Shown in pieces: positions 1 through 43,579 of a DNA stretch of 43,579 nt (positions within the stretch are counted from its first letter, which is position 1; the number at the start of each line of letters is the position of its first letter). The DNA lies in the IMG/VR virus record IMGVR_UViG_2671181030_000006; one strand, 5' to 3'. The position numbers and the translations under genes are program-made. The stretch comes from a virus (lineage: Duplodnaviria; Heunggongvirae; Uroviricota; Caudoviricetes). Below the pieces are notes generated by a model. It had not been told where the DNA came from and ran no database searches. It saw nothing but the letters and a program-made list of their open reading frames with translations.

Positions 1-1194
1 ATGATCACCGACACAAAGCTCAGGAAGGCGCTCGGCAAGAAAAGAGATGATATCGAGATTATTTCTGATTCGCACGGGCTCAACGCCAGAATCAGCCAGG
101 CCGGAAAAATATCATTTTTCTATCGGTATCGCTGGGCCGGTAAAGCGGTAAAACTCAATGTTGGTGATTATCCTGCAATGAGTATCACCCAGGCAAGAGA
201 GCGTCGCCAACAATTCAGAAACTGGTTAACTGAGGGACTGGATCCGCGAGAGCAGGTGAAGCTGGATAAGCAGACCCGACAGGAAGCGATGTCCGTTGCC
301 GAAGCGTTCAATTACTGGATTGAAAGGCACTGTATCGCTAACGGGCTAGTTAAAGTCGATTACTATCGCCAGGTGTTTGAGAAACATATCGCCGAACCGA
401 TGAAGAATGTCAAAGTCGATAACACAGCGAAAATGCACTGGATCAACGTCTTCGATTCTATAGAAAGCAGGGTGATGGCTCATTACATGCTTTCGCTGTG
501 CAAACGGGCGTTTAGGTTCTGCGTTAACAGAAGTGTGATCGCCTCAAACCCACTCGAGGGATTACTGCCATCTGATGTCGGGCAAAAGCCTAAAAAGAGA
601 ACTCGCAGGATGGACGATGACGATCTGCGCAAAATCTATCAGTGGTTGAAAAGCCATATGTCGATAGAGTCCGTTTTCCTGGTGAAATTTATTATGCTTA
701 CCGGATGCCGTACGGCTGAGATTCGACTTAGTGAGAGATCATGGTTTCGATTGGATGATAATGAGTGGGTCGTGCCTGCGGGCAGTTATAAAACTCGGGT
801 ACATATTAGAAGGGGGCTCTCAGACGCCGCCGTTAACTTGGTCAGAAATCACCTCAAGAAAATAAACACCAATCACCTGGTGACTTCACAACGTAAAATT
901 GATGGCGGGATCAAAGATTCGCCCGTTCATTCACCTGTGGCATCCAATTACGCCCGTTCTATTTGGAATGGAACAGGTATGGCAGAGTGGTCGCTTCATG
1001 ATATGAGGCGGACGATAGCCACAAATCTCTCTGAGTTAGGTTGCCCGCCGCACGTAATTGAAAAGCTGCTCGGGCATCAGATGGTGGGGGTTATGGCGCA
1101 TTACAACCTTCATGACTATATCGATGATCAGAAACACTGGCTCCGCGTTTGGCAGAGCCATCTTGAAGAGATCATCGGAGAGCCCTTCAGTTAA
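1..1194 (+). CDS. int: Tyrosine site-specific integrase, P4-type (N-terminal arm-binding region, C-terminal catalytic domain)
   Basis: Seen: 397-aa ORF; C-terminal HDMRRT...LLGH...HY catalytic-type residues; N-terminal [14 protein letters not shown] region typical of P4-like integrases. ATG is at window position 1, so upstream att and promoter are outside the window. Confidence 0.88.
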
Positions 1195-17016: not shown

Positions 17017-17325
17017 TGCCTGCGATCCGGTCAGGGCTCTTGGGTAGAGACGTGCTGCACGACACGTCAAAGCCCTTCCGCGCAGAGCCCTGAACCAGAT
17101 TGAAGTTACTCAGCAATAAGAAAACTGCATGTCATCATTTGCTTATATCTTATTGACCAGAAAATTAACATGTTGTTAATCTATTCGTGTGGTGAATCCC
17201 CCTATGCGGAGGGGCGACCAGTCAAACTTTTTTGTCCAGGTTTGTTTGCGCGGAACTAGTCGGCTGGGGCTGTTCCACCGGGAGGCACCCGGCGCCACCT
17301 CCTTGACGGTATTGTTATTTTTCAT

Positions 17326-17352
17326 GCCTGTTCGTCCGAGCAGGCTTTTTTT
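17326..17352 (+). terminator. Second intrinsic terminator in the Q-to-lysis spacer
   Basis: Seen: GCCTGTTCGTCCGAGCAGGC hairpin followed by TTTTTTT. Confidence 0.5.
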
Positions 17353-17400
17353 GCCCGCATTATCTTCATTGAAAACTGGCAACTCAGAGAATCATCCAAA

Positions 17401-30315: not shown

Positions 30316-33300
30316 CGATCTGGTCATCAACCTTGACGTCGACAGCGCCACGTTTAGTGAGCAGGTTGCCCGCATAAAGGGCCAGCTAACCGGGATGGCT
30401 GAGGACTCTGAAAAAGTCCAGACGCGAATGCAGCGCGCTTCAGAGCGGCAGGCGGCTGCGTTTAAAACCGTGGGCGACGCTGGCGCGGCGGCTGCCGCAG
30501 ATATGAAATCCCGCCAGTCGGCCGCAACGGAAGGGCTTACCAAAGACTGGCAGAACGTTTCAAAGTCCGTTGATGAAACTCACCGCCGCGTGACCGAGCT
30601 TAATCAGCGCATGCGTGAGAATGACGGGCAGGCCGCTGCGCTTGCCCGTCGACAGGATGAACTTGCGGCATCATTTTTCCGCCAGATCGACGGCGTACGC
30701 CAGCTCAATGGTGAAACACAGTCGCTTGCGAACGTGCAGGCGCGCTTTCGCGCAGCGAGGGCACAGGGCAACATAACCCAGCAGGATTATCTCGCCCTTA
30801 TTTCCCGCACCACGGCCCGTCAAAAAGAACTGCAGATCGTGGAGGAAAAATCGGCCGCAGCGCGCACGCGATTCCTCAGCCAGCTGAAGCAACAGGTTGC
30901 AGAGCAAAAGCTCTCCGGTACCGAGCTACTGCGCATGAAGGCGGCGCAGGTCGGTGCCAGCGATGCGGCTGAAGTCTATATCCGCAAGCTCGAAGCTGCC
31001 AAAGTCGCCACGCACGGTCTGGGGCTGCAAAGTGCCGCCGCCCGGCAGGAACTGGGAATACTGATCGGCGAGGTCATGCGCGGTAACTTCGGCGCGCTGC
31101 GCGGCTCCGGGATCACGCTGGCTAACCGGGCAGGGTGGATAGACCAGCTTCTGTCACTGCGCGGTCTTGGGATCGCCAGCATGGTCGGAGGGATTGCCGC
31201 GGCGGTATTCGGGTTGGGTAAGGCCTGGTACGACGGCAGCAAAGAGTCTGAGGAATTTAACAGGCAGCTGATCCTGACCGGGAACTACGCGGGGAAAACG
31301 TCAGGGCAGCTGCAGGCGCTGGCGCGCTCGCTGGCAGGTAATGGCATCACTCAGCATGCCGCTGCAGGCGTGCTGGCGCAGGTCGTTGGCAGCGGCGCGT
31401 TCAGCGGTAATGACGTCAGCATGGTCAGCAATGTTGCCGCCAGGCTGCAGCAGGCTACCGGGCAGGCCGTTGACGAAACCATAAATCAGTTTAAACGCCT
31501 GAAGGATGATCCGGTTAACGCGGTCGCGACGCTCAACGATTCCCTTCATTTTCTGACAGCCACCCAGTATGAACAGATAGCTTCTGCTCAGGCGCTGGGG
31601 GATTCTCAGAAGGCTGCCGAGCTGGCCATGCGGGCATATTCCGACGCGGTCATTCAGCGCGCCGGTGCGGTCGAGGATAATCTCGGATCCCTCGAAAAAG
31701 CCTGGAACTGGGTGAAGAATGCCGCCTCCGGTGCGTGGGATGCGATGCTGGGCGTCGGGCGTAATCCTGACACCGCGATGAAGCGCCAGGACTCTTTTGC
31801 TGAGTGGCAGGCAGCAGAGAAAGAGTACCGCGCGCTGTCCAGCAATCTTAAGGTCGACCCGGATTATGCCGGTAACAACGTTCTGCAGAAAGCGGATGCG
31901 GAAAGGCTGAGAAACGCGCGCCAGCAGGTGGAGCTGAAAAAGCAGGCTTACGATCTTGCCGATCAGCAATACGCCCAGGAAGGGCTGGCAGCCGCGCGGG
32001 AAAAAATGCGAACGGACCAGCAGGCTCAGGCAATCCGCAGCCAGCAGCAGTTTAACCAGCTGGTGGAGTCCGGCGCGACGGCGGCAGAAAAGCGGGCTTC
32101 AGCAGAGAAAAAGCTCAGTCAGCTTATTGAGAAAAACCGCCAGGATGCGAAAGACGGTGTCGCCACGCTGTGGACTGAAAAGGACATTGCCGCGGCCCGC
32201 GCCGGGATTGAAAAGCAGTGGAAGGATCCAAAAACACCGAAAGGCAAAAGCTACTCAACGCCCGCCGGGGACAAAGCCGAGGAAAAGGCGCAGGCCGAAC
32301 TTCTCACCCTTCAGGCCCAGCTTAAAACGCTTGAGCAGCATACCAGCGTGAACGACGTCATAAGTAAACAGCGTCAGGATCTCTGGCAAACTGAAAATCA
32401 GTTCACCGTTCTGCAGGAGGCCGCTGGGCGTCGTCAGCTTACGGCGCAGGAAAAATCCCTGCTGGCGCACAAAGAAGAAACGCTCGAGTACAAGCGGCAG
32501 CTGGCCGACCTGGGCGATAAGGTTGCCAGCCAGCAAAAGCTCAACCAGCTGGCCGATCAGGCCGTGAAGTTTGAGCAGCAGCAAAAAGCCGCCAGGGCGG
32601 GCCTGCAGGCTCAGTCTGAGGGGTTATCCACCCGGGAAGCCGGGCGACAAACTACGCTGCAGCGTCTCAGCGAAAGCTATTCGTACAACCCTCAGGCGCA
32701 GCAAAAGGTTCTGGAAGAGCAAAGGGCGACGTTCGAAGCTGAAGATGCCCTGCGTGCAAACTGGCTGGCCGGTGCGAAACAGGGTTGGGCCGAATATCAG
32801 GATTCAGCGACAAACGTTTTCAGCTCCGTTCAGCAGATTTCTCAGGCTACGTTCAGCGGGTTGGCGGGCCAGCTTACCAGCCTGACGACAACCGGGAAGG
32901 CGAGCTTCAGGGAATTCACCAGCTCGATCCTTAAAATGATTGTGTCCGTTATCAACCAGCTGCTGGTGGCTTACACCATCCAGAGTGCAATGGGCTGGGT
33001 TAGCGGCGGGGCGAAAACCTCCTCTGCCGGTCAGTCATTCGCGGTCCCGTCATACCGGCCACAGGGTTTTGACGTGGGCGGTTTTACCGGGCACGGCGGC
33101 AAGTACGAGCCAGCCGGTATCGTTCACCGCGGGGAATTCGTCTTCACCAAAGAATCAACCAGCCGCATCGGCGTGGCTAATCTCTATCGCCTGATGCGCG
33201 GGTATGCCTCGGGTGGTCTGGTCGGCGGCGGGAACGCAGCCGGTGCTGGCATGGGCGGGATCAGTGTTTATGCCCCAGTCAGCATCAGCCAGCAGGGGAG

Positions 33301-33436
33301 TGACGGAAGCATAAATCAGGCGAACGCCACGGGGACGGCGAAACAGCTGCAGGCGATTGTTCAGCAGACAATCACCGAGCGACTGAAAAAAGAAATGTCC
33401 GCGGGCGGCGTGCTTTATTCGAGGAGGACACAGTGA
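30299..33436 (+). CDS. H: Tail tape measure protein (gpH-like)
   Basis: Seen: 1045-aa Ala/Gln-rich coiled-coil ORF following G/T. Confidence 0.9.
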
Positions 33437-33771
33437 CGGACACGTTTACCTGGCGCACGCGAAAAACAGCGCAGGGCACTGAAACAGCCCGAACGCTGCA
33501 GGCCCAGTTCGGGGATGGCTACAAACAGATAGCGGGGATGGGGATCAACGACAAACAGGAAACGTGGAACCTGGACTGGACGGGCACCAGACAGGAGGCG
33601 GCTGCGCTGCGCGCTTTCCTGATGTCTCACGTTACTAAATCGTTCTGGTGGACCACTCCATGGGGTGAAAAAAAGCTGTTCAGAATGAAGGCCGATTCGT
33701 TCAGCGTTTCTTTCCCTACCGGGAAAAAAGCCACTGTGGCCTTCACTTTTGAACAGGCGTTCGCGCCCTGA
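33433..33771 (+). CDS. M: Minor tail protein gpM
   Basis: Seen: FGDGYKQ...WNLDW...[16 protein letters not shown] resembles recalled lambda M; GTG start after GAGGAGG. Confidence 0.85.
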
Positions 33772-33791
33772 TTTTCTCGAAAAACACTGAA

Positions 33792-33818
33792 AGCTGCCTC
33801 CGGGCGGCTTTTTTTTAT
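33792..33818 (+). terminator. Intrinsic-terminator-like hairpin plus U-tract between M and L
   Basis: Seen: 7-bp stem AGCUGCC/GGCGGCU with UCCG loop, followed by nine U. Confidence 0.45.
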
Positions 33819-33827
33819 GGGGGGAGT

Positions 33828-34565
33828 ATGAGTTTTACGGCAGACATACAACAGCTTGAGCCCGGCAGCGTTATTCAGCTGATTGAGATCGACGGCACTG
33901 AATTCGGTATGGATCAGGTGCTGCGTTTTCATGCGCACAATATTCAGGAAGAGGGGTGGGCAGCCTTCGCCGCAGAAAATCTGCCCGCCATTATCTGGCA
34001 GGGAAACCAGTACGATCCCCATCCCTACGAACTTAAGGGGATGGAGTTATCGAGTACAGGTTCCCAGCCAACGCCCACGCTGTCCGTCGGGAACGTCGGA
34101 AACTATGTCACCGCGCTGTGTCTTGAATATGACGATATGGTCAGGGCTAAGGTCAAAATCCATACCACGCTTTCGAAGTATCTCGATGCCGCCAACTGGA
34201 AAAACGGTAATCCGGGTGCCAGCCCGGCCGATGAGCGCTTACAGCTCTTTTACGTCAATGCTAAAACCGCAGAGACGCGGGTACAGGTTGATTTCGAGCT
34301 GTGTTCTCCTTTCGATATTCAGAGCCTGCAGCTGCCGACACGGCAGATTACGCCTGTCTGCACCTGGTGTATGCGGGGCTGGTACCGAAGCGGGACCGGA
34401 TGCGATTACAACGGCACGAAATACTTTACCAAAGACGGTACACCGACCGATGACCCGTCGAAAGATGTTTGTGGCGGCCGCCGGCAGGATTGTCAGGATC
34501 GTCACGGCCCGGATGCGCCGCTGCCGTTCGGCGGTTTTCCGGCTGCAAACCTGCAGGGGAAATAA
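33828..34565 (+). CDS. L: Minor tail protein gpL
   Basis: Seen: PTLSVGNV...TWCMRGWYRSGTGCDY... resembles recalled lambda L, including the Cys-rich C-terminus. Confidence 0.85.
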   Translation: MSFTADIQQLEPGSVIQLIEIDGTEFGMDQVLRFHAHNIQEEGWAAFAAENLPAIIWQGNQYDPHPYELKGMELSSTGSQPTPTLSVGNVGNYVTALCLEYDDMVRAKVKIHTTLSKYLDAANWKNGNPGASPADERLQLFYVNAKTAETRVQVDFELCSPFDIQSLQLPTRQITPVCTWCMRGWYRSGTGCDYNGTKYFTKDGTPTDDPSKDVCGGRRQDCQDRHGPDAPLPFGGFPAANLQGK

Positions 34566-34567
34566 AA

Positions 34568-35287
34568 ATGCGTGAAAAATTGCTGGATGCTATCCGTCAG
34601 CACGTCGCTGCTGAATACCCCAAAGAAGCCTGCGGCCTGATTGTTCAGTCAGGCCAGCAACAAATCTTTATTCCCTGCCGCAACATTGCCGATAAACCCG
34701 AGGAGACATTCACGCTCTCCCCGGAAGACCAGCTCGCTGCCCGCGCGCGCGGTGAGATCATCATGCTCATTCATTCCCATCCGGATGTGGTTCGGCTGGT
34801 GCCCTCAGAGCTGGACCGGATCCAGTGCGACTGGTCGGGGATTGAGTGGGGGATCATGTCCTGGCCGGACGGGGATTTTTGTACGATTTCCCCGCGTGAA
34901 GACCGGGATTATGCCGGGCGGCAGTGGGTGCTGGGTTACGCCGACTGCTGGTCGCTTATCCGTGAATTTTATCTGCGCGAATACGGCATTGTTCTCGGCA
35001 ATTATTCAGTACCTTACGAATGGTGGGAGAGCGGCAAGGAGCGTCTCTACGACGACAACTGGGAGCGTGAGGGATTCGTTGAGATTGCCGCCGGTGCAAT
35101 GCAGCCCGGAGATATCATCATGATGAGTGTGCAGGCATCGGTGACTAATCACGCCGCGGTATATGTGGGTGATAACATCATTCTCCATCATCTTTTCGGG
35201 CACCTTTCTTCGCGAACGCCTTATGGAAAATATTATCGCGACAGAACGGTCCGGGTGGTCAGGCATAAGGACAGAATGCATGGTTAA
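34568..35287 (+). CDS. K: Tail assembly protein gpK (JAB/MPN metalloprotease-like N-terminus plus NlpC/P60-like C-terminus)
   Basis: Seen: HSHPD JAMM-type motif and a later Cys/His pair (GYADCW, NHAAVYVG...LHH). ATG 34568 chosen; the track ORF starts earlier. Confidence 0.85.
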   Translation: MREKLLDAIRQHVAAEYPKEACGLIVQSGQQQIFIPCRNIADKPEETFTLSPEDQLAARARGEIIMLIHSHPDVVRLVPSELDRIQCDWSGIEWGIMSWPDGDFCTISPREDRDYAGRQWVLGYADCWSLIREFYLREYGIVLGNYSVPYEWWESGKERLYDDNWEREGFVEIAAGAMQPGDIIMMSVQASVTNHAAVYVGDNIILHHLFGHLSSRTPYGKYYRDRTVRVVRHKDRMHG

Positions 35288-35897
35288 GACGCTTATTCTC
35301 GAAGGTAAAATGGCAAAAAAATTCGGTAAACGCGTTCAGTTTGATGTTGCCGACCTGCGCGAGATGCTCAGGGCCATGTGTTCACAGGTTCCCGGATTCA
35401 AAAAATATATGTCTGAAGCTCATATGAAGGGGATCCGTTTCGCCTTTTTTAACGGTGGCAACAATATCGGGCTGGAAGAGTTTGATATGACCCGCGGTGG
35501 AAGCGTGTACCGGATCGTGCCCGTTTATGAGGGGGCCAAAAGTTCGGGCGTCCTGCAGATAGTTGTCGGGGCTGTTGCGCTGGTCGCTGCATTCTTTACC
35601 GCTGGTGCGAGCATGGCAGCCTGGGGCGCGGCGATGAGTGCAACAGCTATCAGCGCCACGTCAATTCTGACAGGGGTCGGAGTGTCGATGATGCTGGGGG
35701 GCGTTGTCCAGATGCTCACGCCCCAGCCATCCTTCGGCGCGGGTAAATCCTCCAGCACGGACAACACGCCTAACTACGCCTTCGGGGCGCCGGTCAATAC
35801 CGTCGCTATGGGGCATCCTGTCCCCCTGGCCTACGGTCTGACTGAGGCAGGGGGAGCGATAGTCAGCGCCGGTATGTACTCGAGCGATCAGCAGTAG
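35280..35897 (+). CDS. I: Tail assembly protein gpI
   Basis: Seen: GAKSSGVLQIVVGAVALVAAFFTAGASMAAWGAA...MMLGGVVQMLTPQP resembles recalled lambda I. Confidence 0.85.
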   Translation: MVKTLILEGKMAKKFGKRVQFDVADLREMLRAMCSQVPGFKKYMSEAHMKGIRFAFFNGGNNIGLEEFDMTRGGSVYRIVPVYEGAKSSGVLQIVVGAVALVAAFFTAGASMAAWGAAMSATAISATSILTGVGVSMMLGGVVQMLTPQPSFGAGKSSSTDNTPNYAFGAPVNTVAMGHPVPLAYGLTEAGGAIVSAGMYSSDQQ

Positions 35898-35916
35898 GCC
35901 AGCGGCCACTAACTTA

Positions 35917-35939
35917 AAGGTGCTTCGGCACCTTTTTTT
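35917..35939 (+). terminator. Intrinsic-terminator-like hairpin plus T-tract immediately upstream of J
   Basis: Seen: AAGGTGC-TTCG-GCACCTT followed by TTTTTTT, abutting the first in-frame ATG of J at 35940. Confidence 0.45.
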
Positions 35940-35951
35940 ATGGGTGAAAAA

Positions 35952-38900
35952 ATGCAGCTTCTTAAACAAGAAACCATCCTGCAGGGTGCCAAAGGGGGAG
36001 GTGGCAGTTCACATACTCCGGTTGAGCAGCCTGACGATCTGCTGTCGGTCGCAAAATTAAAAATGCTCATTGCCGTTTCTGAGGGGGAAATACAGGGCGA
36101 CCTGACCGCTCAGAACATTTTTCTCAACGATACGCCGCTGGCAAACGACAGCGGGGAATACAACTTCAGCGGCGTGAAATGGGAGTTCCGCAAGGGCACA
36201 CAGGACCAGACCTATATTGCCGGGATGCCCCAGGTCGACAACGAGCTGGCCGTGGGCACAACTGTCACCACCACCGCGCCCTGGACGCGCCAGTTTACAA
36301 ACCTTTCCCTGGATGCCATCCGTATCAAGCTCAGCCTTCCGGTCCAGTATCTCTATAAAGATAATGGCGATATGGTGGGCACGGTCACCGAGTATGCGAT
36401 CGATTTATCAACGGACGGCGGCGCCTGGAAAACGGTTGTAAACGGCAAGTTTGACGGAAAGACCACGACGGAATATCAGCGTGACCACCGTATCGATCTG
36501 CCAAAATCCACGTCCGGCTGGTCTGTCAGGGTCAGGCGTATTACGGCTGATGCCAGCGGATCAAATTCGAAACTGGTTAACGCCTTCAAGGTGTTTTCGT
36601 ATGCGGAAGTCATCGACAGCAAGCTTCGTTATCCTTTAACAGCGCTCCTGTATGTCGAAGTGGACAGCAGCCAATTCAACGGCAGCGCGCCGAAAGTGAC
36701 CTGTAAGATAAAAGGCAAGCTGATTAAGGTTCCGGATAATTACGATCCGAAAACCCGAACCTATTCTGGTTCATGGTCCGGCGGGTTCAAAATGGCATGG
36801 TCCAATAACCCTGCCTGGATCTTTTACGATCTGGTTCTGGATGAAATTTACGGCATGGGCACGCGCGTGGATGCGTCCATGGTGGATAAGTGGGCGCTGT
36901 ATTCAATCGCCCAGTACTGTGACGAAATGGTTTCCGACGGGGCCGGTGGCACCGAACCGCGTTTCACCTGCAACGTTTTCATTCAGAGCCAGGAGGACGC
37001 CTGGCAGGTACTTAACGATCTCGCCGCGGTATTTCGTGGAATAACGTTCTGGGGCAACGATCAGATTTATGTCCAGGCAGACGTCCCGCAGGACGATGTT
37101 GACTGGGTTTATAACGTCTCAAACGTTATCGATGGGCTGTTTACTTATGCGGGCGGCTCATACAAGAATCGCTACAGCTCCTGCCTGGTGTCCTGGTCCG
37201 ATCCGCAGAACCATTACAGCGATACCGTTGAGGGGGTTTACGATTCGGCGCTTGTAGAACGTTACGACGTCCGGCAGACGTCCCTGACCGCAATCGGCTG
37301 CACCTCGCAAAGTGAAGCGCACCGACGCGGTCGCTGGGTATTGCTCTCCAATGCCAAAGACGGGACCGTATCGTTTGGCGTGGGGCTGGACGGTTATATC
37401 CCTTTGCCCGCTGAAATTATCGGTGTCGCCGATCCTTTCCGCTCTGGTAAGGAGAACGGGGGCCGTATAAGCGCGGCCAACGGCCGCCAAATTACCCTCG
37501 ATCGAGAAATAGACTACGCGGCGAAAGACCGGCTGGTGGTTAACCTTCCCGACGGAAAAGCCCAGACGCGGACAATCAGCGCGGTGAGCGCCGATAAAAA
37601 AACGGTGACGGTGGCTACGGCATTCAGTCAGGTTCCTGTGGCGGGCGCTGTTTGGGCGATAGACAGTGATAACCTCGCAATACAGTACTTCAGGGTCACC
37701 TCAATCGCGGCTAACGACGACAGTACAGGCGGTTTCACTATTACGGCCGTTCAGCACGATCCAAACAAATATCGTTACATCGATGACGGCGTTCGGGTCG
37801 AGTCTCCCCCGATCACCGTCACGCCGATAAGCGTCCTGTCTGCTCCGAAGAATATCGTGGTGACTGAGAGCGATCATGTGTCTCAGGGGCTGACTGTAGC
37901 AAGCCTGGACGTGTCATGGGATAAGGTAGAGGGCGCAATCCGGTATGTTGCCCAGTGGCGTAAGGACAACGGGGACTGGATAAACGTTCCGGTTACCAGC
38001 GCGCAGGGTTTCTCGGTTCAGGGCATTTATTCGGGCAGCTATGACGTGCGCGTACGGGCGCTGAATGCGCAGGATACGTCGTCACCATGGGGATACGGTG
38101 AAACAACTTATCTCTCCGGTAAAACGGGAAAACCGGGTACTCCGCTCAACTTCCTGGCGACCGAAGATGTGGTCTGGCATATCGACCTGACCTGGAAATT
38201 TCCGGATGGCTCAGGCGACACGGCCTATACAGAGATTCAGCGCGCCACAACTGCCGACTACGCCAATCCTGAACTGCTGGTCCTGGTGCCGTACCCGGCT
38301 GCAGATTATCAGCATGGCCCCATGCCTGCCGGCGTTCGCCAGTGGTACCGCGCGCGCCTGATTGACCGTATCGGTAACGCCGGGGACTGGACCGACTGGA
38401 TCATGGGCACGTCCTCGATAGATGTCAGCGAAATAACTAATGACATTCTGGAGGATATGAAAGAGTCGGAAACGTTCAAAGACCTGATCGAGAACGCGGT
38501 GGACAGCAACGAAAAAATTGCTGGCATGGCTAACGATATCAAACAGGCCAACGACGAACTGGAGCAGCAAGCGAAAGATATCGCCAAAAATGCCCAGGAC
38601 GTCGGGAAGGTTCAGACCAGCGTTAATGAGCTTTCCAGCACGGTCGGGAATGTTTCGTCTTCACTCAGTCAGCTTGAGCAGACCGTTGCGACGGCTGATA
38701 CCGCCCTGGGCCAGCGAATCGACAACATCAGCGTTTCTATGGACGGCATGACGGGCGGGGTGAAGAACTCTGCAATTGCGATAATCCAGGCCAACCTCGC
38801 TCAGGTGGCCACGCGTAAAACCCTTTCTGCATCGGTCGCCGGCAACAGCGCGAATCTGGACCGCATTGATGAAGTGATTGTCAACGACAGGGAGGCAACG

Positions 38901-39866
38901 GCGCGCTCGCTGTTGAGCCTGCAGACGGACGTTAACGGCAACAAGGCATCCATCAACAGCCTGAACCAGACGTTCTCCGATTACCAGCAGGCTATGGCCA
39001 CGCAGGTAAACAGCATCACGGCGACGGTGAACGGGCATACCTCAGCCATCACCACCAACGCTCAGGCCATAGCGAACGTAAACGGCGACCTCAGCGCGAT
39101 GTACAACATCAAGGTTGGTGTCTCCAGCAACGGGCAGTATTACGCCACGGGGATGGGTATCGGCGTGGAGAATACGCCATCCGGCATGCAGTCGCAGGTT
39201 ATCTTCCTGGCTGACCGCTTCGCCGTCACCACGGCAGCCGGAAATAGCGTAGCTTTGCCGTTCGTGATCCAGAACGGGCAGACATTCATCCGGGCCAGCT
39301 TCATCCAGGACGGCACCATTGAGAACGCCAAAATCGGCAACTATATCCAGTCCAACAACTATGCAGCTGGTTCTGCTGGTTGGAAGTTGAATAAAGCTGG
39401 AGATGCTGAATTCAACAATGTGACCGTCAGAGGTGTAGTATATGCTAGTGGCGGTAGCTTTACTGGTGAGATCCAAGCAACAAGCGGTAAATTCAAAGGG
39501 ACTGTGGAAGCCCAAAGTTTTATCGGGGACATTGCAAATATGCACACCGGAACTAACGTTAGTCGGTCTAGTGACGGTCTTTTAGAAAAGGTAATAACTT
39601 ATACGGATTCATCCAGTTCTGGGCACGCAAGACACGTCTGTGTTATAGCAAACGTTAAAGGTAATGGTGCAGGACTAATCAATATTAACGGCAATGAGAG
39701 TGGTTCATCTGTGCAAGACGTGGAGAGACTTATTATGCATTCTGCTGTTGTAACAGGTCCAAGCGTAACAGTACGTATTAAAGTGTCCGCTCAAAATAAC
39801 AGAGGCGCGTCCATTTATTCGCCTACTGTCATAGTATCACACGGATCTGGTTCATTCACAGGTTAA
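35952..39866 (+). CDS. J: Central tail fibre / host specificity protein gpJ
   Basis: Seen: 1.3-kaa ORF with J-like N-terminus (KGGGGSSHTP) and conserved core (WSNNPAWIFYDLV..., GGTEPRFTCNVF). Start could be ATG 35940 or 35952; 35952 chosen because the upstream hairpin T-tract abuts 35940. The last about 170 codons are AT-rich. Confidence 0.88.
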   Translation: MQLLKQETILQGAKGGGGSSHTPVEQPDDLLSVAKLKMLIAVSEGEIQGDLTAQNIFLNDTPLANDSGEYNFSGVKWEFRKGTQDQTYIAGMPQVDNELAVGTTVTTTAPWTRQFTNLSLDAIRIKLSLPVQYLYKDNGDMVGTVTEYAIDLSTDGGAWKTVVNGKFDGKTTTEYQRDHRIDLPKSTSGWSVRVRRITADASGSNSKLVNAFKVFSYAEVIDSKLRYPLTALLYVEVDSSQFNGSAPKVTCKIKGKLIKVPDNYDPKTRTYSGSWSGGFKMAWSNNPAWIFYDLVLDEIYGMGTRVDASMVDKWALYSIAQYCDEMVSDGAGGTEPRFTCNVFIQSQEDAWQVLNDLAAVFRGITFWGNDQIYVQADVPQDDVDWVYNVSNVIDGLFTYAGGSYKNRYSSCLVSWSDPQNHYSDTVEGVYDSALVERYDVRQTSLTAIGCTSQSEAHRRGRWVLLSNAKDGTVSFGVGLDGYIPLPAEIIGVADPFRSGKENGGRISAANGRQITLDREIDYAAKDRLVVNLPDGKAQTRTISAVSADKKTVTVATAFSQVPVAGAVWAIDSDNLAIQYFRVTSIAANDDSTGGFTITAVQHDPNKYRYIDDGVRVESPPITVTPISVLSAPKNIVVTESDHVSQGLTVASLDVSWDKVEGAIRYVAQWRKDNGDWINVPVTSAQGFSVQGIYSGSYDVRVRALNAQDTSSPWGYGETTYLSGKTGKPGTPLNFLATEDVVWHIDLTWKFPDGSGDTAYTEIQRATTADYANPELLVLVPYPAADYQHGPMPAGVRQWYRARLIDRIGNAGDWTDWIMGTSSIDVSEITNDILEDMKESETFKDLIENAVDSNEKIAGMANDIKQANDELEQQAKDIAKNAQDVGKVQTSVNELSSTVGNVSSSLSQLEQTVATADTALGQRIDNISVSMDGMTGGVKNSAIAIIQANLAQVATRKTLSASVAGNSANLDRIDEVIVNDREATARSLLSLQTDVNGNKASINSLNQTFSDYQQAMATQVNSITATVNGHTSAITTNAQAIANVNGDLSAMYNIKVGVSSNGQYYATGMGIGVENTPSGMQSQVIFLADRFAVTTAAGNSVALPFVIQNGQTFIRASFIQDGTIENAKIGNYIQSNNYAAGSAGWKLNKAGDAEFNNVTVRGVVYASGGSFTGEIQATSGKFKGTVEAQSFIGDIANMHTGTNVSRSSDGLLEKVITYTDSSSSGHARHVCVIANVKGNGAGLININGNESGSSVQDVERLIMHSAVVTGPSVTVRIKVSAQNNRGASIYSPTVIVSHGSGSFTG

Positions 39867-39898
39867 AATATTAACCCCTCTTTTTAGGGGTTAATATT
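39867..39898. terminator. Bidirectional terminator / perfect palindrome between convergent J and lipoprotein genes
   Basis: Seen: 14-bp perfect inverted arms (AATATTAACCCCT...AGGGGTTAATATT) around a T-rich loop. Confidence 0.55.
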
Positions 39899-40131
39899 TA
39901 GTAGTCTATAACACAGTTAGAAGGGCTACCGATTCGTCGGTATTCGTGATCAATCTCGTGACACCACTGCCCCGTCATTGGAAGGTTTTCGGTATCATAA
40001 ATTAAAGAACCGTTACCATCTCGATCCAAAGGTTTTGGAATGACACCGGAATTTGGTTTACCGGTATTTAAACCATTACCACATGCAGTGAGGGACAGAC
40101 ATAATGGCAGCATAATTAGAGCGAGTTTCAT
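39898..40131 (-). CDS. Small lipoprotein (signal peptide plus lipobox LTAC), moron in the Cor/Bor-like position
   Basis: Seen: 77-aa ORF MKLALIMLPLCLSLTACG with strong AAGGAG Shine-Dalgarno; convergent with J; AT-rich. Confidence 0.65.
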   Translation of the reverse strand: MKLALIMLPLCLSLTACGNGLNTGKPNSGVIPKPLDRDGNGSLIYDTENLPMTGQWCHEIDHEYRRIGSPSNCVIDY

Positions 40132-40213
40132 TTGGACTCCTTTGTGTTGTTGACAAGGTTCAATTTTAATATACTTGTTGTGTTGAGTAAGTCAAATAAA
40201 GTGGGAAATGTTA

Positions 40214-40558
40214 TGGCAATTCGTTTACATGGTATTTTAGTTGATGGATTGAATAAACCAATCGTCAACGCAAACGTCTTCTTACTTGCACGAAGCCATT
40301 CATTTTTGATGGGACAATAAATATCACCAATGCGAACCTGAATATTGGTGATAAATTTTGCCAGATTGTTTATACCGGGGCTAACTGTCGACACGTTGGT
40401 GGTTACGGAAATATTAGGTATAAAGGAATTGTAATGACAGGTGGGAATGTCATAGCGGAAAGGAATAAAGTAGTCGGCAATTATTATTTGGGTGGGTGGT
40501 CAATGGCATTTGATACAACTATAGCTATGCCAACACTGGCGTTGCCCAACATGTATTA
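40214..40558 (+). pseudogene. Decayed remnant of a side-tail-fibre (stf-like) gene start, interrupted by stop and frameshift
   Basis: Seen: MAIRLHGILVDGLNKPIVNANVFL resembles the recalled lambda Stf N-terminus (MAVKISGVLKDGTGKPVQNCTI); the ORF stops after 35 codons and continues in another frame. Confidence 0.35.
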
Positions 40559-40636
40559 AAAACCAATTCAGAAATTATTTCTGGTGAGGGTTATATACCT
40601 CTCCGGGCTTCATGTTGTCTAAATTTAGGAGTTGTT

Positions 40637-41548
40637 ATGATTTATAGCACCGGAACTATCTCTATTAACGGAAATACCGCAACCGGCTCCGGCACAAACT
40701 GGACAGCTCCCGCCAGCCAGGTCCGCGCTGGCCAGACGATTATCGTGATGTCTAACCCGGTGCAGCTGTTTCAGATTTCATCCGTGAACAGCGCCACGTC
40801 AATGACGGTTACGCCAGCAGTTTCCCCGGCGCTGAGCGGCCAGAAGTATGGAATCCTTGTGTCGGACAATATCTCAGTCGACGGCCTGGCGCAGGCCATG
40901 TCACAGCTCATCAAAGAGTACGACGAGAATATTGGCGCGTGGGAGACGTTCGCCACCACCTCAGCAAACCAAAGCATCACAGTTACCATCAACGGCACCG
41001 CCGTAACCATCCCAGGCATCGGTAAACTTGCGCAGAAAGGGAGCAACGGTGCGGTTACTGTCGCAGACGGCGGAACCGGCGCAACGAATGCCGCAGACGC
41101 TCGCACAAACCTTGGTTTGGGAGAAGGCTCAGCATTACCTGTTGGGGTGCCTGTTCCGTGGCCTTCAGCCACTCCGCCAACAGGCTGGCTGAAATGCAAT
41201 GGTGCGGCTTTTTCTGCTGAAGAATACCCGGAACTGGCAAAGGCTTACCCGACAAATAAATTGCCTGATTTACGCGGTGAATTTATTCGTGGATGGGATG
41301 ATGGGCGCGGGGTGGATTCCTCTCGTGGTTTGTTGACATCTCAAGACCATTTATTTGCTTCTCATGGGCACTGGTTTGACCAGTACTATGCGCTAAAAAG
41401 TTTTGATCCAACGGGAGGTCGGTTCGTAGTTACGGCTGATGCTTTCGGGGAACTTATTACGGCAAATTCAATTTCTACGGTATCGGTTGGTGGTTCTGAA
41501 ACCCGGCCGCGCAACGTCGCATTTAACTATATCGTGAGGGCAGCCTGA
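40637..41548 (+). CDS. Side tail fibre protein (constant N-terminal part plus currently expressed variable C-terminal part inside the invertible segment)
   Basis: Seen: AGGAG Shine-Dalgarno; C-terminus RNVAFNYIVRAA matches the recalled Stf-type ending NIAFNYIVRLA; the recombination crossover site lies inside the gene near 41101-41126. Confidence 0.8.
   Translation: MIYSTGTISINGNTATGSGTNWTAPASQVRAGQTIIVMSNPVQLFQISSVNSATSMTVTPAVSPALSGQKYGILVSDNISVDGLAQAMSQLIKEYDENIGAWETFATTSANQSITVTINGTAVTIPGIGKLAQKGSNGAVTVADGGTGATNAADARTNLGLGEGSALPVGVPVPWPSATPPTGWLKCNGAAFSAEEYPELAKAYPTNKLPDLRGEFIRGWDDGRGVDSSRGLLTSQDHLFASHGHWFDQYYALKSFDPTGGRFVVTADAFGELITANSISTVSVGGSETRPRNVAFNYIVRAA
41101..41126. repeat. Invertase crossover site, left (inside the tail-fibre gene)
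   Basis: Seen: AAACCTTGGTTTGGGAGAAG; its 15-bp core TTGGTTTGGGAGAAG is repeated in inverted orientation at 42945-42959. Confidence 0.6.
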
Positions 41549-42150
41549 TGAATAAAGCCGTATTAAATAACGAACTCATTGCCATAAAAGCGGGAGACAT
41601 TATCATTTATAATTATGATGGTGAAACGCGTGAATATATTTCTACATCAACTGAATATCTCGCTGTCGGCGTCGGTATCCCGGCATGTTCTTGTTTGGAT
41701 GCACCAGGTACACATAAAGCTGGTTATGCAATCTGTCGCTCTGTAGATTTAAATTCATGGGAATATGTGCCAGATCATCGTGGTGAAATCGTCTATAGCA
41801 CCGAAACAGGAGAATCGAAAAAAATCACAGCTCCGGGTGATTATCCTGAAAATACAACCACTATCGCCCCGTTAACGCCATACGATAAATGGAATGGTGA
41901 GAAATGGGTGACAGATACCGAGGCACAGCACGGCGCAGCAGTAGATGCAGCAGAAGCACTGCGCCAGTCGCTGATTCATACTGCAATGGCCTCCATCAGT
42001 CTGATTCAACTGAAATTACAGGCCGGACGGAATCTGACGCAGGCAGAAACAACCCGCCTTAACGCTGTGCTGGATTACATTTACGCGGTGACGGCAACAG
42101 ATACCAGCACCGCGCCGGATGTCATCTGGCCTGAACTGCCGGAGGCGTAG
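41548..42150 (+). CDS. Tail fibre assembly protein (Tfa), current orientation
   Basis: Seen: 200-aa ORF coupled (ATGA) to the fibre gene; its C-terminus mirrors that of the convergent ORF (conserved WPxxP ending). Confidence 0.8.
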   Translation: MNKAVLNNELIAIKAGDIIIYNYDGETREYISTSTEYLAVGVGIPACSCLDAPGTHKAGYAICRSVDLNSWEYVPDHRGEIVYSTETGESKKITAPGDYPENTTTIAPLTPYDKWNGEKWVTDTEAQHGAAVDAAEALRQSLIHTAMASISLIQLKLQAGRNLTQAETTRLNAVLDYIYAVTATDTSTAPDVIWPELPEA

Positions 42151-42574
42151 GCCATTCAATATCTGGCGCACCGGAAGTATCGATCAGCTCCAGTGCGTCC
42201 AGATAATCCAGCCACAAATTATATTGCGCCAGTTCATCATCTTTCAGACGACCAATAGCGGCTTTACCGGGCCATTGCTTACTGTTCATGTATTCGTTGG
42301 CCTGGTTAATTAGTAGCTGTCTTTCTGATTCAGTAATTTCAATAAGCTCTTCATGCGTGGGTGGAGGAATATCTGCCCACGCAGGCATCCCATCATCTCC
42401 GGCAATACGGATTTTTCCTTGTGGCGGTTCAGCCATAAACTCACTGATAATATTTTGATTCACCTCCTTTGCATCTGATAAATCCCATCCCTCTGATTTA
42501 TATTTATCAATCATATCCACAGGGAAAAAAGCATTATTCCTTGCGCTATAAACATATTCGTTCATATAAATCAC
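42122..42574 (-). CDS. Alternative tail fibre assembly protein (Tfa'), used after inversion
   Basis: Seen: 150-aa convergent ORF overlapping the Tfa 3' end by 29 bp, with similar C-terminal sequence. Confidence 0.75.
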   Translation of the reverse strand: MIYMNEYVYSARNNAFFPVDMIDKYKSEGWDLSDAKEVNQNIISEFMAEPPQGKIRIAGDDGMPAWADIPPPTHEELIEITESERQLLINQANEYMNSKQWPGKAAIGRLKDDELAQYNLWLDYLDALELIDTSGAPDIEWPTPPAVQAR

Positions 42575-42585
42575 CCTGAATAAAA

Positions 42586-42978
42586 TTACTCACCAACAGC
42601 CCACCAACTGTAATTCATCGATACTGTGGAACTGGTTGATGCAGTTCTGTAAGCGGAATTAAAACCGGTTAATGTTGGGCCTTCTGCGGTCATCACGAAT
42701 CCCCGCCCAGCACCTAAAGGCGCACCACCATCACCAGAATGAGTAAGCATGGCGCAGTCCACTTTTTTAGGAAAAGGGATGCTGAATGTAATTCTCATTG
42801 TTTGCGTCGATAATGTCGGCGTAACCGCACCACGACCATATTGCAGGATTTTCCCGTTGGGTAATTTCATCCATCCATCACCACTGGCAAAAGAGGCCAT
42901 GTCCGGTATCTGATTTTCCCCTGTCCCCACATCCCGTTTTGCCGCTTCTCCCAAACCAACCTTTTTTATAACCATCAA
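42586..42978 (-). CDS. Alternative variable C-terminal tail-fibre segment (Sv'-like), silent in this orientation
   Basis: Seen: the ORF begins at the right crossover site and encodes KVGLGEA, matching NLGLGEG at the left site in the expressed fibre; it lacks its own constant N-terminal part. Confidence 0.6.
   Translation of the reverse strand: MMVIKKVGLGEAAKRDVGTGENQIPDMASFASGDGWMKLPNGKILQYGRGAVTPTLSTQTMRITFSIPFPKKVDCAMLTHSGDGGAPLGAGRGFVMTAEGPTLTGFNSAYRTASTSSTVSMNYSWWAVGE
42945..42972. repeat. Invertase crossover site, right
   Basis: Seen: CTTCTCCCAAACCAACCTTTTTTATAACC, the reverse complement of the left-site core. Confidence 0.6.
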
Positions 42979-43030
42979 AAATCTGGTGATGCTTCGCCGT
43001 TTCTCCTGTTTTCATAACAGGAGAAATCCC

Positions 43031-43579
43031 ATGATTTACGGTTATGCCCGAGTATCAACAAACCACCAGGACACTGAATTGCAACTAACGGCGCTCAAGT
43101 CAGCGGGTTGTGAGAAAATTTTTGAAGAGCATGCCAGCGGGAGGAAATCGAATCGGCCGGTTCTAAAACGGCTCATCGCCACTATGCAGCCGGGGGATGA
43201 ACTGGTGGTCTGGAAGCTGGACAGGATAGGCCGCAACGTTCTGCATGCGCTGTTGATGTTCCAGCAGTTACAGGAAAAGGGTATCAACTTCCGCAGTATT
43301 ACCGATGGCGTGGATCTCAAAACAGCCAGCGGCCGCTATAACTTTCGTAACATCCTTTCCGCAGCACAATATGAATCTGATCTTAATAGCGAACGTACCT
43401 TAGCAGGGCTGGCCGTAGCCAGGGCAAAAGGGCGAGTTGGTGGTCGCAGGCCTAAGTTCACGGATGAGCAATGGCGGGAAATGGGGGAGCGGATGGCAAC
43501 CGGTGAATCACGACAAAGCGTATCAAAAACGTATGGAGTAGGGCTCTCAACTCTGTATAAAAAGTTTCCAGCTAGCTGA
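43031..43579 (+). CDS. Serine DNA invertase (Pin/Gin/Hin family)
   Basis: Seen: MIYGYARVSTNHQD...(catalytic Ser region)...C-terminal HTH; AGGAG Shine-Dalgarno; gene ends exactly at the window end with a stop codon. Confidence 0.9.
   Translation: MIYGYARVSTNHQDTELQLTALKSAGCEKIFEEHASGRKSNRPVLKRLIATMQPGDELVVWKLDRIGRNVLHALLMFQQLQEKGINFRSITDGVDLKTASGRYNFRNILSAAQYESDLNSERTLAGLAVARAKGRVGGRRPKFTDEQWREMGERMATGESRQSVSKTYGVGLSTLYKKFPAS

Follow-up and report, generated by a model that had tools for sequence, protein, structure and literature searches.

Gene content of the tail-fibre locus

The DNA stretch analysed here, referred to as the window, comprises the 43,579 nucleotides (nt) of the IMG/VR record IMGVR_UViG_2671181030_000006 and is a complete phi80-like lambdoid prophage of Escherichia coli, with its genes in prophage order. 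Its last 3 kb bear a side tail-fibre gene, a cassette bounded by short inverted repeats and a serine recombinase gene, and we consider this locus to be, with high probability, a site-specific DNA inversion switch for phage host range. The features which build the locus are the following (aa, amino acids; ORF, open reading frame; Tfa, tail fibre assembly protein):

40637-41111, plus strand: constant N-terminal part of the fibre (Sc), codons 1-158 and the first base of Leu159
40637-41548, plus strand: fibre ORF of 303 aa, with a Phage Tail Collar domain
41100-41125, plus strand: left 26-bp crossover site CTCGCACAAACC-TT-GGTTTGGGAGAA, central dinucleotide at 41112-41113, alignable with cix
41112-42959, no strand: invertible block, 1,848 bp between identical 15-bp cores, 1,846 bp centre to centre
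41114-41548, plus strand: variable fibre C-terminus A of the Phage Tail Collar type (Pfam Collar, E-value = 2.4e-15), fused to Sc
41548-42150, plus strand: Tfa chaperone A, 200 aa (Pfam Caudo_TAP, E-value = 8.9e-31)
42122-42565, minus strand: Tfa chaperone B, 147 aa from its ATG within a 150-aa ORF reaching 42574 (Pfam Caudo_TAP, E-value = 5.3e-31)
42586-42957, minus strand: variable fibre C-terminus B, gp53-like (Pfam Gp53-like_C, E-value = 2.8e-13), within an ORF at 42586-42978
42946-42971, plus strand: right 26-bp crossover site TTCTCCCAAACC-AA-CCTTTTTTATAA, central dinucleotide at 42958-42959
43031-43579, plus strand: serine DNA invertase of the phi80 PinL lineage, 182 aa (Pfam Resolvase, E-value = 3.6e-39, and HTH_7)

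All five ORFs of the locus are intact. The original prediction, made from the sequence alone, had described a fibre gene encoding NLGLGEG, an opposite-strand fibre segment encoding KVGLGEA, two convergent and overlapping tail fibre assembly genes between the repeats and a serine invertase just outside them, and each of these was recovered: NLGLGEG is part of the 303-aa fibre, KVGLGEA is read from the minus-strand ORF, the two Caudo_TAP genes converge with a 29-bp overlap, and the enzyme carries both the Resolvase and the HTH_7 domain. The start of chaperone A overlaps the stop codon of the fibre gene (TGATG), while chaperone B is annotated as a 147-aa gene in both of the sister assemblies presented below. 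Judging from this arrangement, the 303-aa fibre with C-terminus A appears to be the currently expressed form, while C-terminus B, which lacks both a promoter and an N-terminus in the window orientation, would be silent, as would chaperone B.

Crossover sites

An exact 15-mer, TTGGTTTGGGAGAAG, occurs once per strand, at 41112-41126 (plus) and 42945-42959 (minus), precisely as the original prediction had it. Two matches to this 15-mer were obtained in none of 100 dinucleotide-preserving shuffles, even with two mismatches permitted, and a repeat finder extended the pair to 20 nt (41107-41126 and 42945-42964) with 90% complementarity. The positions of the core therefore stand as proposed, but the functional unit is better described as the two 26-bp sites listed above than as the 15 bp alone. 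Both are of the pix/cix type, lie in inverted orientation and have an AA/TT core in common. The inner half-site TTCTCCCAAACC together with the AA core is the same as in both pix sites of the e14 element of E. coli K-12, which read TTCTCCCAAACC-AA-CGTTTATGAAAA and TTCTCCCAAACC-AA-GGTTTTCGAGAG. We also compared gix, read from the Mu record as TTATCCAAAACC-TC-GGTTTACAGGAA, and cix, read from the P1 record as CAATCCTAAACC-TT-GGTTTAAGAGAA; the window sites fit the family consensus TTMTCNNAAACC-NN-GGTTT. Crossover in cix is assigned by the P1 record to the central TT, and from this we presume the crossover points of the window to be the central dinucleotides 41112-41113 and 42958-42959.

The left site falls inside the fibre gene, at residues N158 L G L G E163, and its central TT makes up positions 2-3 of the Leu159 codon CTT. 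The right site, read on the minus strand, has its central TT at the equivalent positions of a GTT codon, so that an in-silico flip of 41112-42959 preserves the reading frame. The flipped sequence encodes an in-frame fibre of 282 aa (...ARTNLGLGEAAKRDVGTGENQ...WWAVGE), followed after 20 nt by the 147-aa Tfa gene.

Occurrence of both orientations

The predicted 282-aa recombinant fibre was found verbatim in NCBI by exact-sequence look-up, as the E. coli protein KUG75834.1 (ARC81_06770), while the native 303-aa fibre corresponds to KUG70681.1. The contig encoding the former, LLYC01000090.1 (GCA_001484085.1), is 100% identical to window positions 30637-43003, save that 41112-42959 lies on the opposite strand; against the in-silico flipped window it presents 0 mismatches in 12,367 bases, and both flipped junctions are present within it. 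The window itself is identical to contig LLYD01000125.1 (GCA_001484235.1). These two sister assemblies derive from isolates ccpm3961 (AN61) and ccpm3962 (AN62) of one healthy preschool child, "WZW" (PMC7133007). Concerning related prophages in complete genomes, 730V1 and ES8 show the window orientation and ES5 and EC2001 the flipped one, with the alignment strand switching exactly at 41112-41126 and 42945-42959 (breakpoints in ES5 and EC2001). Both orientations of the same element thus occur in nature, where the original prediction had taken a single orientation in deep sequencing as evidence against a switch. A census of the left junction in complete E. coli genomes at a coverage of at least 80% returned one native and two flipped records, the variable modules being too mosaic for such a count.

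The Sc part of the fibre gene is unmoved in both orientations and 100% identical in both sister assemblies, and EC2001, ES5 and Nissle 1917 combine this Sc with other C-termini. Additionally, the cassette alone recurs with 99.7% identity in e14-like elements of other E. coli strains. The match stops at the sites, which fits a mobile module bounded by recombination sites.

Contig LLYC01000090.1 ends 44 nt beyond the right core (window position 43003), in the left arm of a palindrome described below. In five of 14 related loci of other species (L012, L013, L015, L021 and L024), the contig likewise breaks off 160-930 bp before the invertase gene. Short-read assemblies could be failing at these points because orientations are mixed or invertase genes repeated.

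The invertase and its lineage

Residues 1-181 of the invertase align with the Mu Gin structures 3UJ3/4M6F (E-value = 1e-56). The residues R7, Ser9, D64, R65 and R68 are identical to those of Gin, so that the catalytic residues are intact and the inactivation through a mutated catalytic serine that the original prediction had allowed for is not seen. The enzyme has its recognition-helix motif STLYKKFP in common with Cin and Gin. Genes of the PinL lineage in Morganella, Erwinia and Kluyvera adjoin inverted pix-like repeats 1.7-3.3 kb apart, which suggests that the lineage as a whole works on cassettes of this kind; in other genera, PinL-lineage invertase genes are preceded by the conserved motif AACCAACCTTT. 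On these sequence grounds we file the enzyme as a putative DNA invertase acting on pix-type sites. NCBIfam holds no equivalog for any of the five proteins of the locus.

In a 426-bp contig of Kluyvera sichuanensis (L024), the first 89 invertase codons translate identically to those of the window. Of the 100 bp compared upstream, the stretch between the crossover core and the ATG does not differ from the window, and the part distal to the core matches that of another related locus (L013). This suggests either a recent exchange of the module between genera or an assembly-graph fragment.

Comparison with known systems

The P segment of e14, a cryptic prophage of E. coli K-12 (stfP-tfaP / tfaE-stfE, pinE), has the same gene order as the window, namely constant fibre part, variable part, tfa, convergent tfa', variable part' and invertase. 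The e14 segment flips in ordinary cultures (PMC4272514), and comparable prophage inversions have been documented in E. coli cultures (PMC4272514; PMC9881135). At the DNA level, C-terminus A is approximately 93% identical to the start of e14 stfE and chaperone A approximately 87% identical to tfaE. The stf of HK97 is 95% identical to C-terminus A. The two systems differ in the second module, which is gp53-like in the window and StfP/TfaP in e14, and in their context, as e14 is a defective element without the leader palindrome while the window is a complete prophage. The Mu G/Gin and P1 C/Cin systems resemble the window in their 26-bp sites, centred on AAACC-NN-GGTTT, in the small serine invertase next to the cassette, in the Sc/Sv split of the fibre and in their U/U' (Tfa) chaperones. 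At 1.85 kb, the window cassette is smaller than those of Mu (about 3 kb) and P1 (4.2 kb), and, unlike in Gin and Cin, neither the Fis-contact residues nor the distal Fis-site position are conserved.

The named phages nearest to the window are phi80, mEp237 and HK97. Both phi80, in its pinL region, and mEp237 share with the window the invertase lineage, the location at the right prophage end beside attP/yciI, the fibre N-terminus, the right site TTCTCCCAAACCAACC and the palindrome upstream of pinL. Their cassette has nevertheless been destroyed, with a dinI-type gene inserted, pseudogene fragments, deletions and no left partner site; pinL of phi80 is also truncated at its 3' end, while the window gene is intact. 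HK97 carries Sc, a Collar-type fibre and one Tfa as in the window (95% identity), but no second module and no invertase. In Nissle 1917 (L026, NZ_CP022686.1, 427441-429763), this Sc continues, precisely from the crossover site, into a third, different C-terminal module, and a full cassette with tfa, tfa' and a silent gp53-like segment is present, with a dinI-like gene in place of the invertase. From their gene content, the Nissle 1917 locus appears to be a locked version of the switch and HK97 another fixed form. Taken together, HK97, Nissle 1917, phi80/mEp237 and the complete version of the window may be arranged as a decay series, that is, four states of one locus, in which the window would represent the intact, switchable ancestor from which the pinL region of the classical phage phi80 has decayed.

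Proposed mechanism and alternative explanations

The original prediction had assigned the locus to the Mu G / P1 C / e14 P type of host-range switch, and this assignment agrees with our data, as all structural elements are present and the frames fit. Following the model of these systems, invertase dimers would bind the two inverted 26-bp sites and cut both of them at the central 2-bp core through Ser9, whereupon half of the tetramer would rotate by 180 degrees and religation would leave the 1.85-kb cassette flipped. With the left site within the fibre gene and the crossover dinucleotide at equal codon positions in the two sites, either C-terminus, Collar-type or gp53-like, is attached in frame to the constant N-terminus of 159 residues. 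Each C-terminus is trailed by its own Tfa gene, which would be co-transcribed only in the matching orientation. A lysogen population would then contain two prophage forms, and induction would release virions of two receptor specificities. Synthesis of the invertase is probably kept low by a 12-bp hairpin in its leader, predicted to bury the ribosome-binding site.

A number of observations weigh against this interpretation, or against parts of it. The kinship of the enzyme with the classical invertases is not close, and its sequence diverges from the family: it has 51.6% identity with Gin, 52.2% with Cin and 54.9% with PinE, compared to 75-82% among those three. Fis/enhancer-dependent invertases are reported to conserve uniquely Q151, R154 and L155 of Hin in helix 1 of the DNA-binding domain and basic residues at positions 47, 48 and 51 in helix B (PMC3798978; McLean et al.). 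Gin, Cin and PinE retain every one of these residues, while the window invertase has E, E and R at the first three positions and K, R and A at the others, K51 of helix B thus being replaced by A. These positions also vary among its relatives. The Fis-bound recombinational enhancer of the family, with two Fis sites about 48 bp from each other, occupies the 5' part of the invertase gene; that of Cin is annotated in the P1 record at nt 19-90 of cin, and its equivalent in the window is the following:

43049-43120, plus strand: counterpart, by position, of the Cin recombinational enhancer (invertase gene nt 19-90), codon-aligned with cin, gin and pinE

Here, the equivalent of the proximal Fis site, GTATCAACAAACCAC, is kept (GTATCAACAAATGAC in gin), and codon-level conservation is high there in every clade. 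The equivalent of the distal site, CAGCGGGTTGTGAGA (GTGCAGGATGTGAAC in gin), is without both the flanking G and the flanking C, and close relatives do not conserve this region. Fis tolerates degenerate sites, and of all their features these two flanking bases determine its binding most strongly. Pairs of G-N13-C 15-mers 48 bp apart elsewhere in the gene (e.g., nt 130 and 178) were rejected as substitutes, being expected by chance. The dependence of this invertase on Fis and an enhancer seems doubtful from its sequence, and with the Fis-contact residues and the distal site changed, the mechanistic detail of Hin and Gin may not transfer fully. Finally, the evidence for inversion consists of assembled sequences, so that switching within a single culture and its catalysis by the adjacent enzyme are predictions, as are the two receptor specificities.

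The cassette might instead be flipped in trans by a classical invertase of the host, such as e14 PinE or a P2-/Mu-type homologue of Gin or Cin, the adjacent PinL-type enzyme being weak, inactive or differently targeted. Classical Din invertases cross-complement, the inner half-sites and AA core are those of e14 pix, the same cassette resides in e14-like elements of other strains, and the adjacent enzyme is without the Fis-contact residues. On the other hand, this enzyme has all the catalytic residues and the conserved recognition helix, and the repeated location of PinL-lineage genes beside inverted pix-like repeats in Morganella, Erwinia and Kluyvera, together with the conserved upstream motif, argues that PinL enzymes act on these sites; we regard inversion in trans as rather unlikely. 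It is less probable still that the locus is a frozen relic which no longer switches, with the sister orientations left by one old event or by RecA recombination between the short repeats. Decayed versions do exist, as seen in phi80 (pinL and cassette fragments), Nissle 1917 (cassette without invertase) and HK97 (one module), but all five ORFs of the window are intact and a repeat of 15-20 bp is a poor RecA substrate. Moreover, the two forms differ by the inversion alone over 12.4 kb and come from isolates of one child, which points to a very recent event.

The weakest case can be made for an assembly artefact as the source of the opposite orientation in the sister assembly, which we find scarcely credible. 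Both records are short-read drafts and the LLYC contig terminates soon after the right core; yet a repeat of 15-20 bp is below the usual assembly k-mers, so that each junction needs spanning reads, and both flipped junctions lie in that contig, with the same two arrangements appearing in complete genomes of relatives. Inversion by the adjacent PinL-type enzyme is retained as the most probable explanation. The type of system has long been known as a bet-hedging switch of phages, and the locus is a new, previously uncharacterised member that introduces no new principle; what novelty is left resides in the divergent invertase lineage and its leader palindrome. It is, nonetheless, an unusually clean natural example of switching, in that the flip is the sole difference between two gut isolates of one child across the 12.4 kb compared.

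The leader palindrome and hairpins

Two elements lie between the cassette and the invertase gene:

42985-42998, plus strand: small GC-rich hairpin GGTGA-TGCT-TCGCC with a T-rich run, terminator-like match, part of the minimum-free-energy fold
43000-43026, plus strand: palindrome TTTCTCCTGTT-TTCAT-AACAGGAGAAA with 11-bp arms and a 5-nt loop, IR3 in the phi80 record

The original prediction had noted a palindrome overlapping the ribosome-binding site of the invertase, which is real, but the proposed shape of 9-bp arms around 8 nt at approximately 43003-43028 has to be replaced by the position and arms given above. Its 3' arm holds the Shine-Dalgarno sequence AGGAG, with the ATG 4 nt downstream. 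RNA folding of 42975-43050 resulted in a 5-bp hairpin followed by a 12-bp hairpin (-24.9 kcal/mol, z = -4.45), and none of 200 shuffles folded as well. The smaller hairpin, whose GGYGA/TCGCC pairing is kept across genera with a G-U to G-C change, resembles a weak terminator separating the cassette from the invertase gene.

The palindrome is constant in six genera while its flanks are variable. Ahead of the closest invertase genes, those of Trabulsiella, Kluyvera, Pseudocitrobacter, Shimwellia and Apirhabdus, the element CGCCGTTTCTCCTGTTTTCAYAACAGGAGAAAT does not vary, unlike the sequence on its left side; among the upstream sequences compared, the palindrome is absent from the more distant members of the PinL lineage and from e14. 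In phi80, mEp237 and 730V1, the outermost pair is altered on both sides (T-A to C-G). With 10 of the 12 pairs invariant and this single two-sided change, the covariation fits RNA pairing and a symmetric operator alike. The outer hexamers TTCTCC...GGAGAA match the outer ends of the pix sites, but the dyad is 25 bp instead of 26 and AAACC is missing; GGAGAA may be present simply as a Shine-Dalgarno sequence. We favour the view that the palindrome damps translation of the invertase through occlusion of the Shine-Dalgarno sequence, while an autoregulatory site bound by the invertase itself, as originally suggested, is a possible role.

No sigma-70-like promoter for the invertase was found on the plus strand. 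A promoter-like match on the minus strand, TTGATA-16-AATCAT (9/12, at 43031-43058), coincides with the 5' end of the invertase gene and is directed into the cassette. It is probably a chance match, as eight of this kind occur in the region compared to 5.6 expected.

A possible separate branch of enteric invertases

The E-helix of the enzyme also departs from the classical pattern. In Hin, F105 and M109 of the E-helix are reported to lock the inactive dimer (PMC4513852), and H107 is reported as the site of the activating mutation H107Y (PMC4817059). At the positions of Hin F105, H107, M109 and M115, the window invertase has N, R, I and Y, and all 13 members of the lineage that were recovered from other genera share its E-helix motif SGRYNFRNILSAAQYESDLNSERT without variation. 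Codon-level conservation among 13 PinL-lineage genes showed a clear peak only at codons 5-16 and was otherwise too noisy to speak for or against an embedded enhancer.

In view of the altered Fis-contact patch, the invariant lineage motif in place of the autoinhibitory E-helix residues and the loss of the distal Fis site, we tentatively propose, as a possibility of rather low probability, that the PinL lineage may form a branch of its own among enteric invertases, one which still flips pix-type cassettes and has abandoned or rewired canonical Fis/enhancer licensing, its activity perhaps being limited by the leader palindrome through occlusion of the ribosome-binding site or binding of the enzyme. 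This proposal covers the phi80-like prophages of Escherichia, Trabulsiella, Kluyvera, Shimwellia, Morganella and Erwinia. The sequence of the lineage suggests regulation unlike the Hin/Gin paradigm, and an invertase that proved to be Fis-independent or self-limiting through its palindrome would offer a useful comparison for the licensing of serine invertases. Such an invertase could also be of use in engineering as a compact recombinase.

Further features of the prophage

The prophage encodes an integrase at window positions 1-1194, a pair of RecT-like and RecE-like recombination proteins, a CI-type repressor, an O-like replication protein, the large terminase, the portal and the tape-measure protein, as well as a J-type tip protein of 1308 aa (35940-39866). 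In contig LLYD01000125.1, the host genes yciI-tonB come after the invertase gene, corresponding to the phi80 attachment region.

A perfect 14-bp inverted repeat, AAATATTAACCCCT-N6-AGGGGTTAATATTT, extends over 39866-39899, starting at the stop codon of J (39864-39866), and sits between J on the plus strand and a convergent lipoprotein gene on the minus strand; from its sequence it looks like a bidirectional terminator. The latter gene (39898-40131, minus strand) encodes a predicted lipoprotein of 77 aa with the lipobox LTAC (phrog_12984, E-value = 1e-56) and occupies the place of cor in phi80 and N15, but on the opposite strand. As similarity between this protein and phi80 Cor was not detectable, we rejected it as a Cor homologue; it may have a superinfection-exclusion function. 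Between the lipoprotein and fibre genes, 40132-40560 holds broken coding remnants, and the equivalent stretch of related prophages is recorded by RefSeq as an incomplete DUF6453 pseudogene. Finally, a full-length match to the Rfam small RNA STnc100 is found within the prophage at 17157-17356 on the plus strand, scoring 85 bits against a gathering score of 47.

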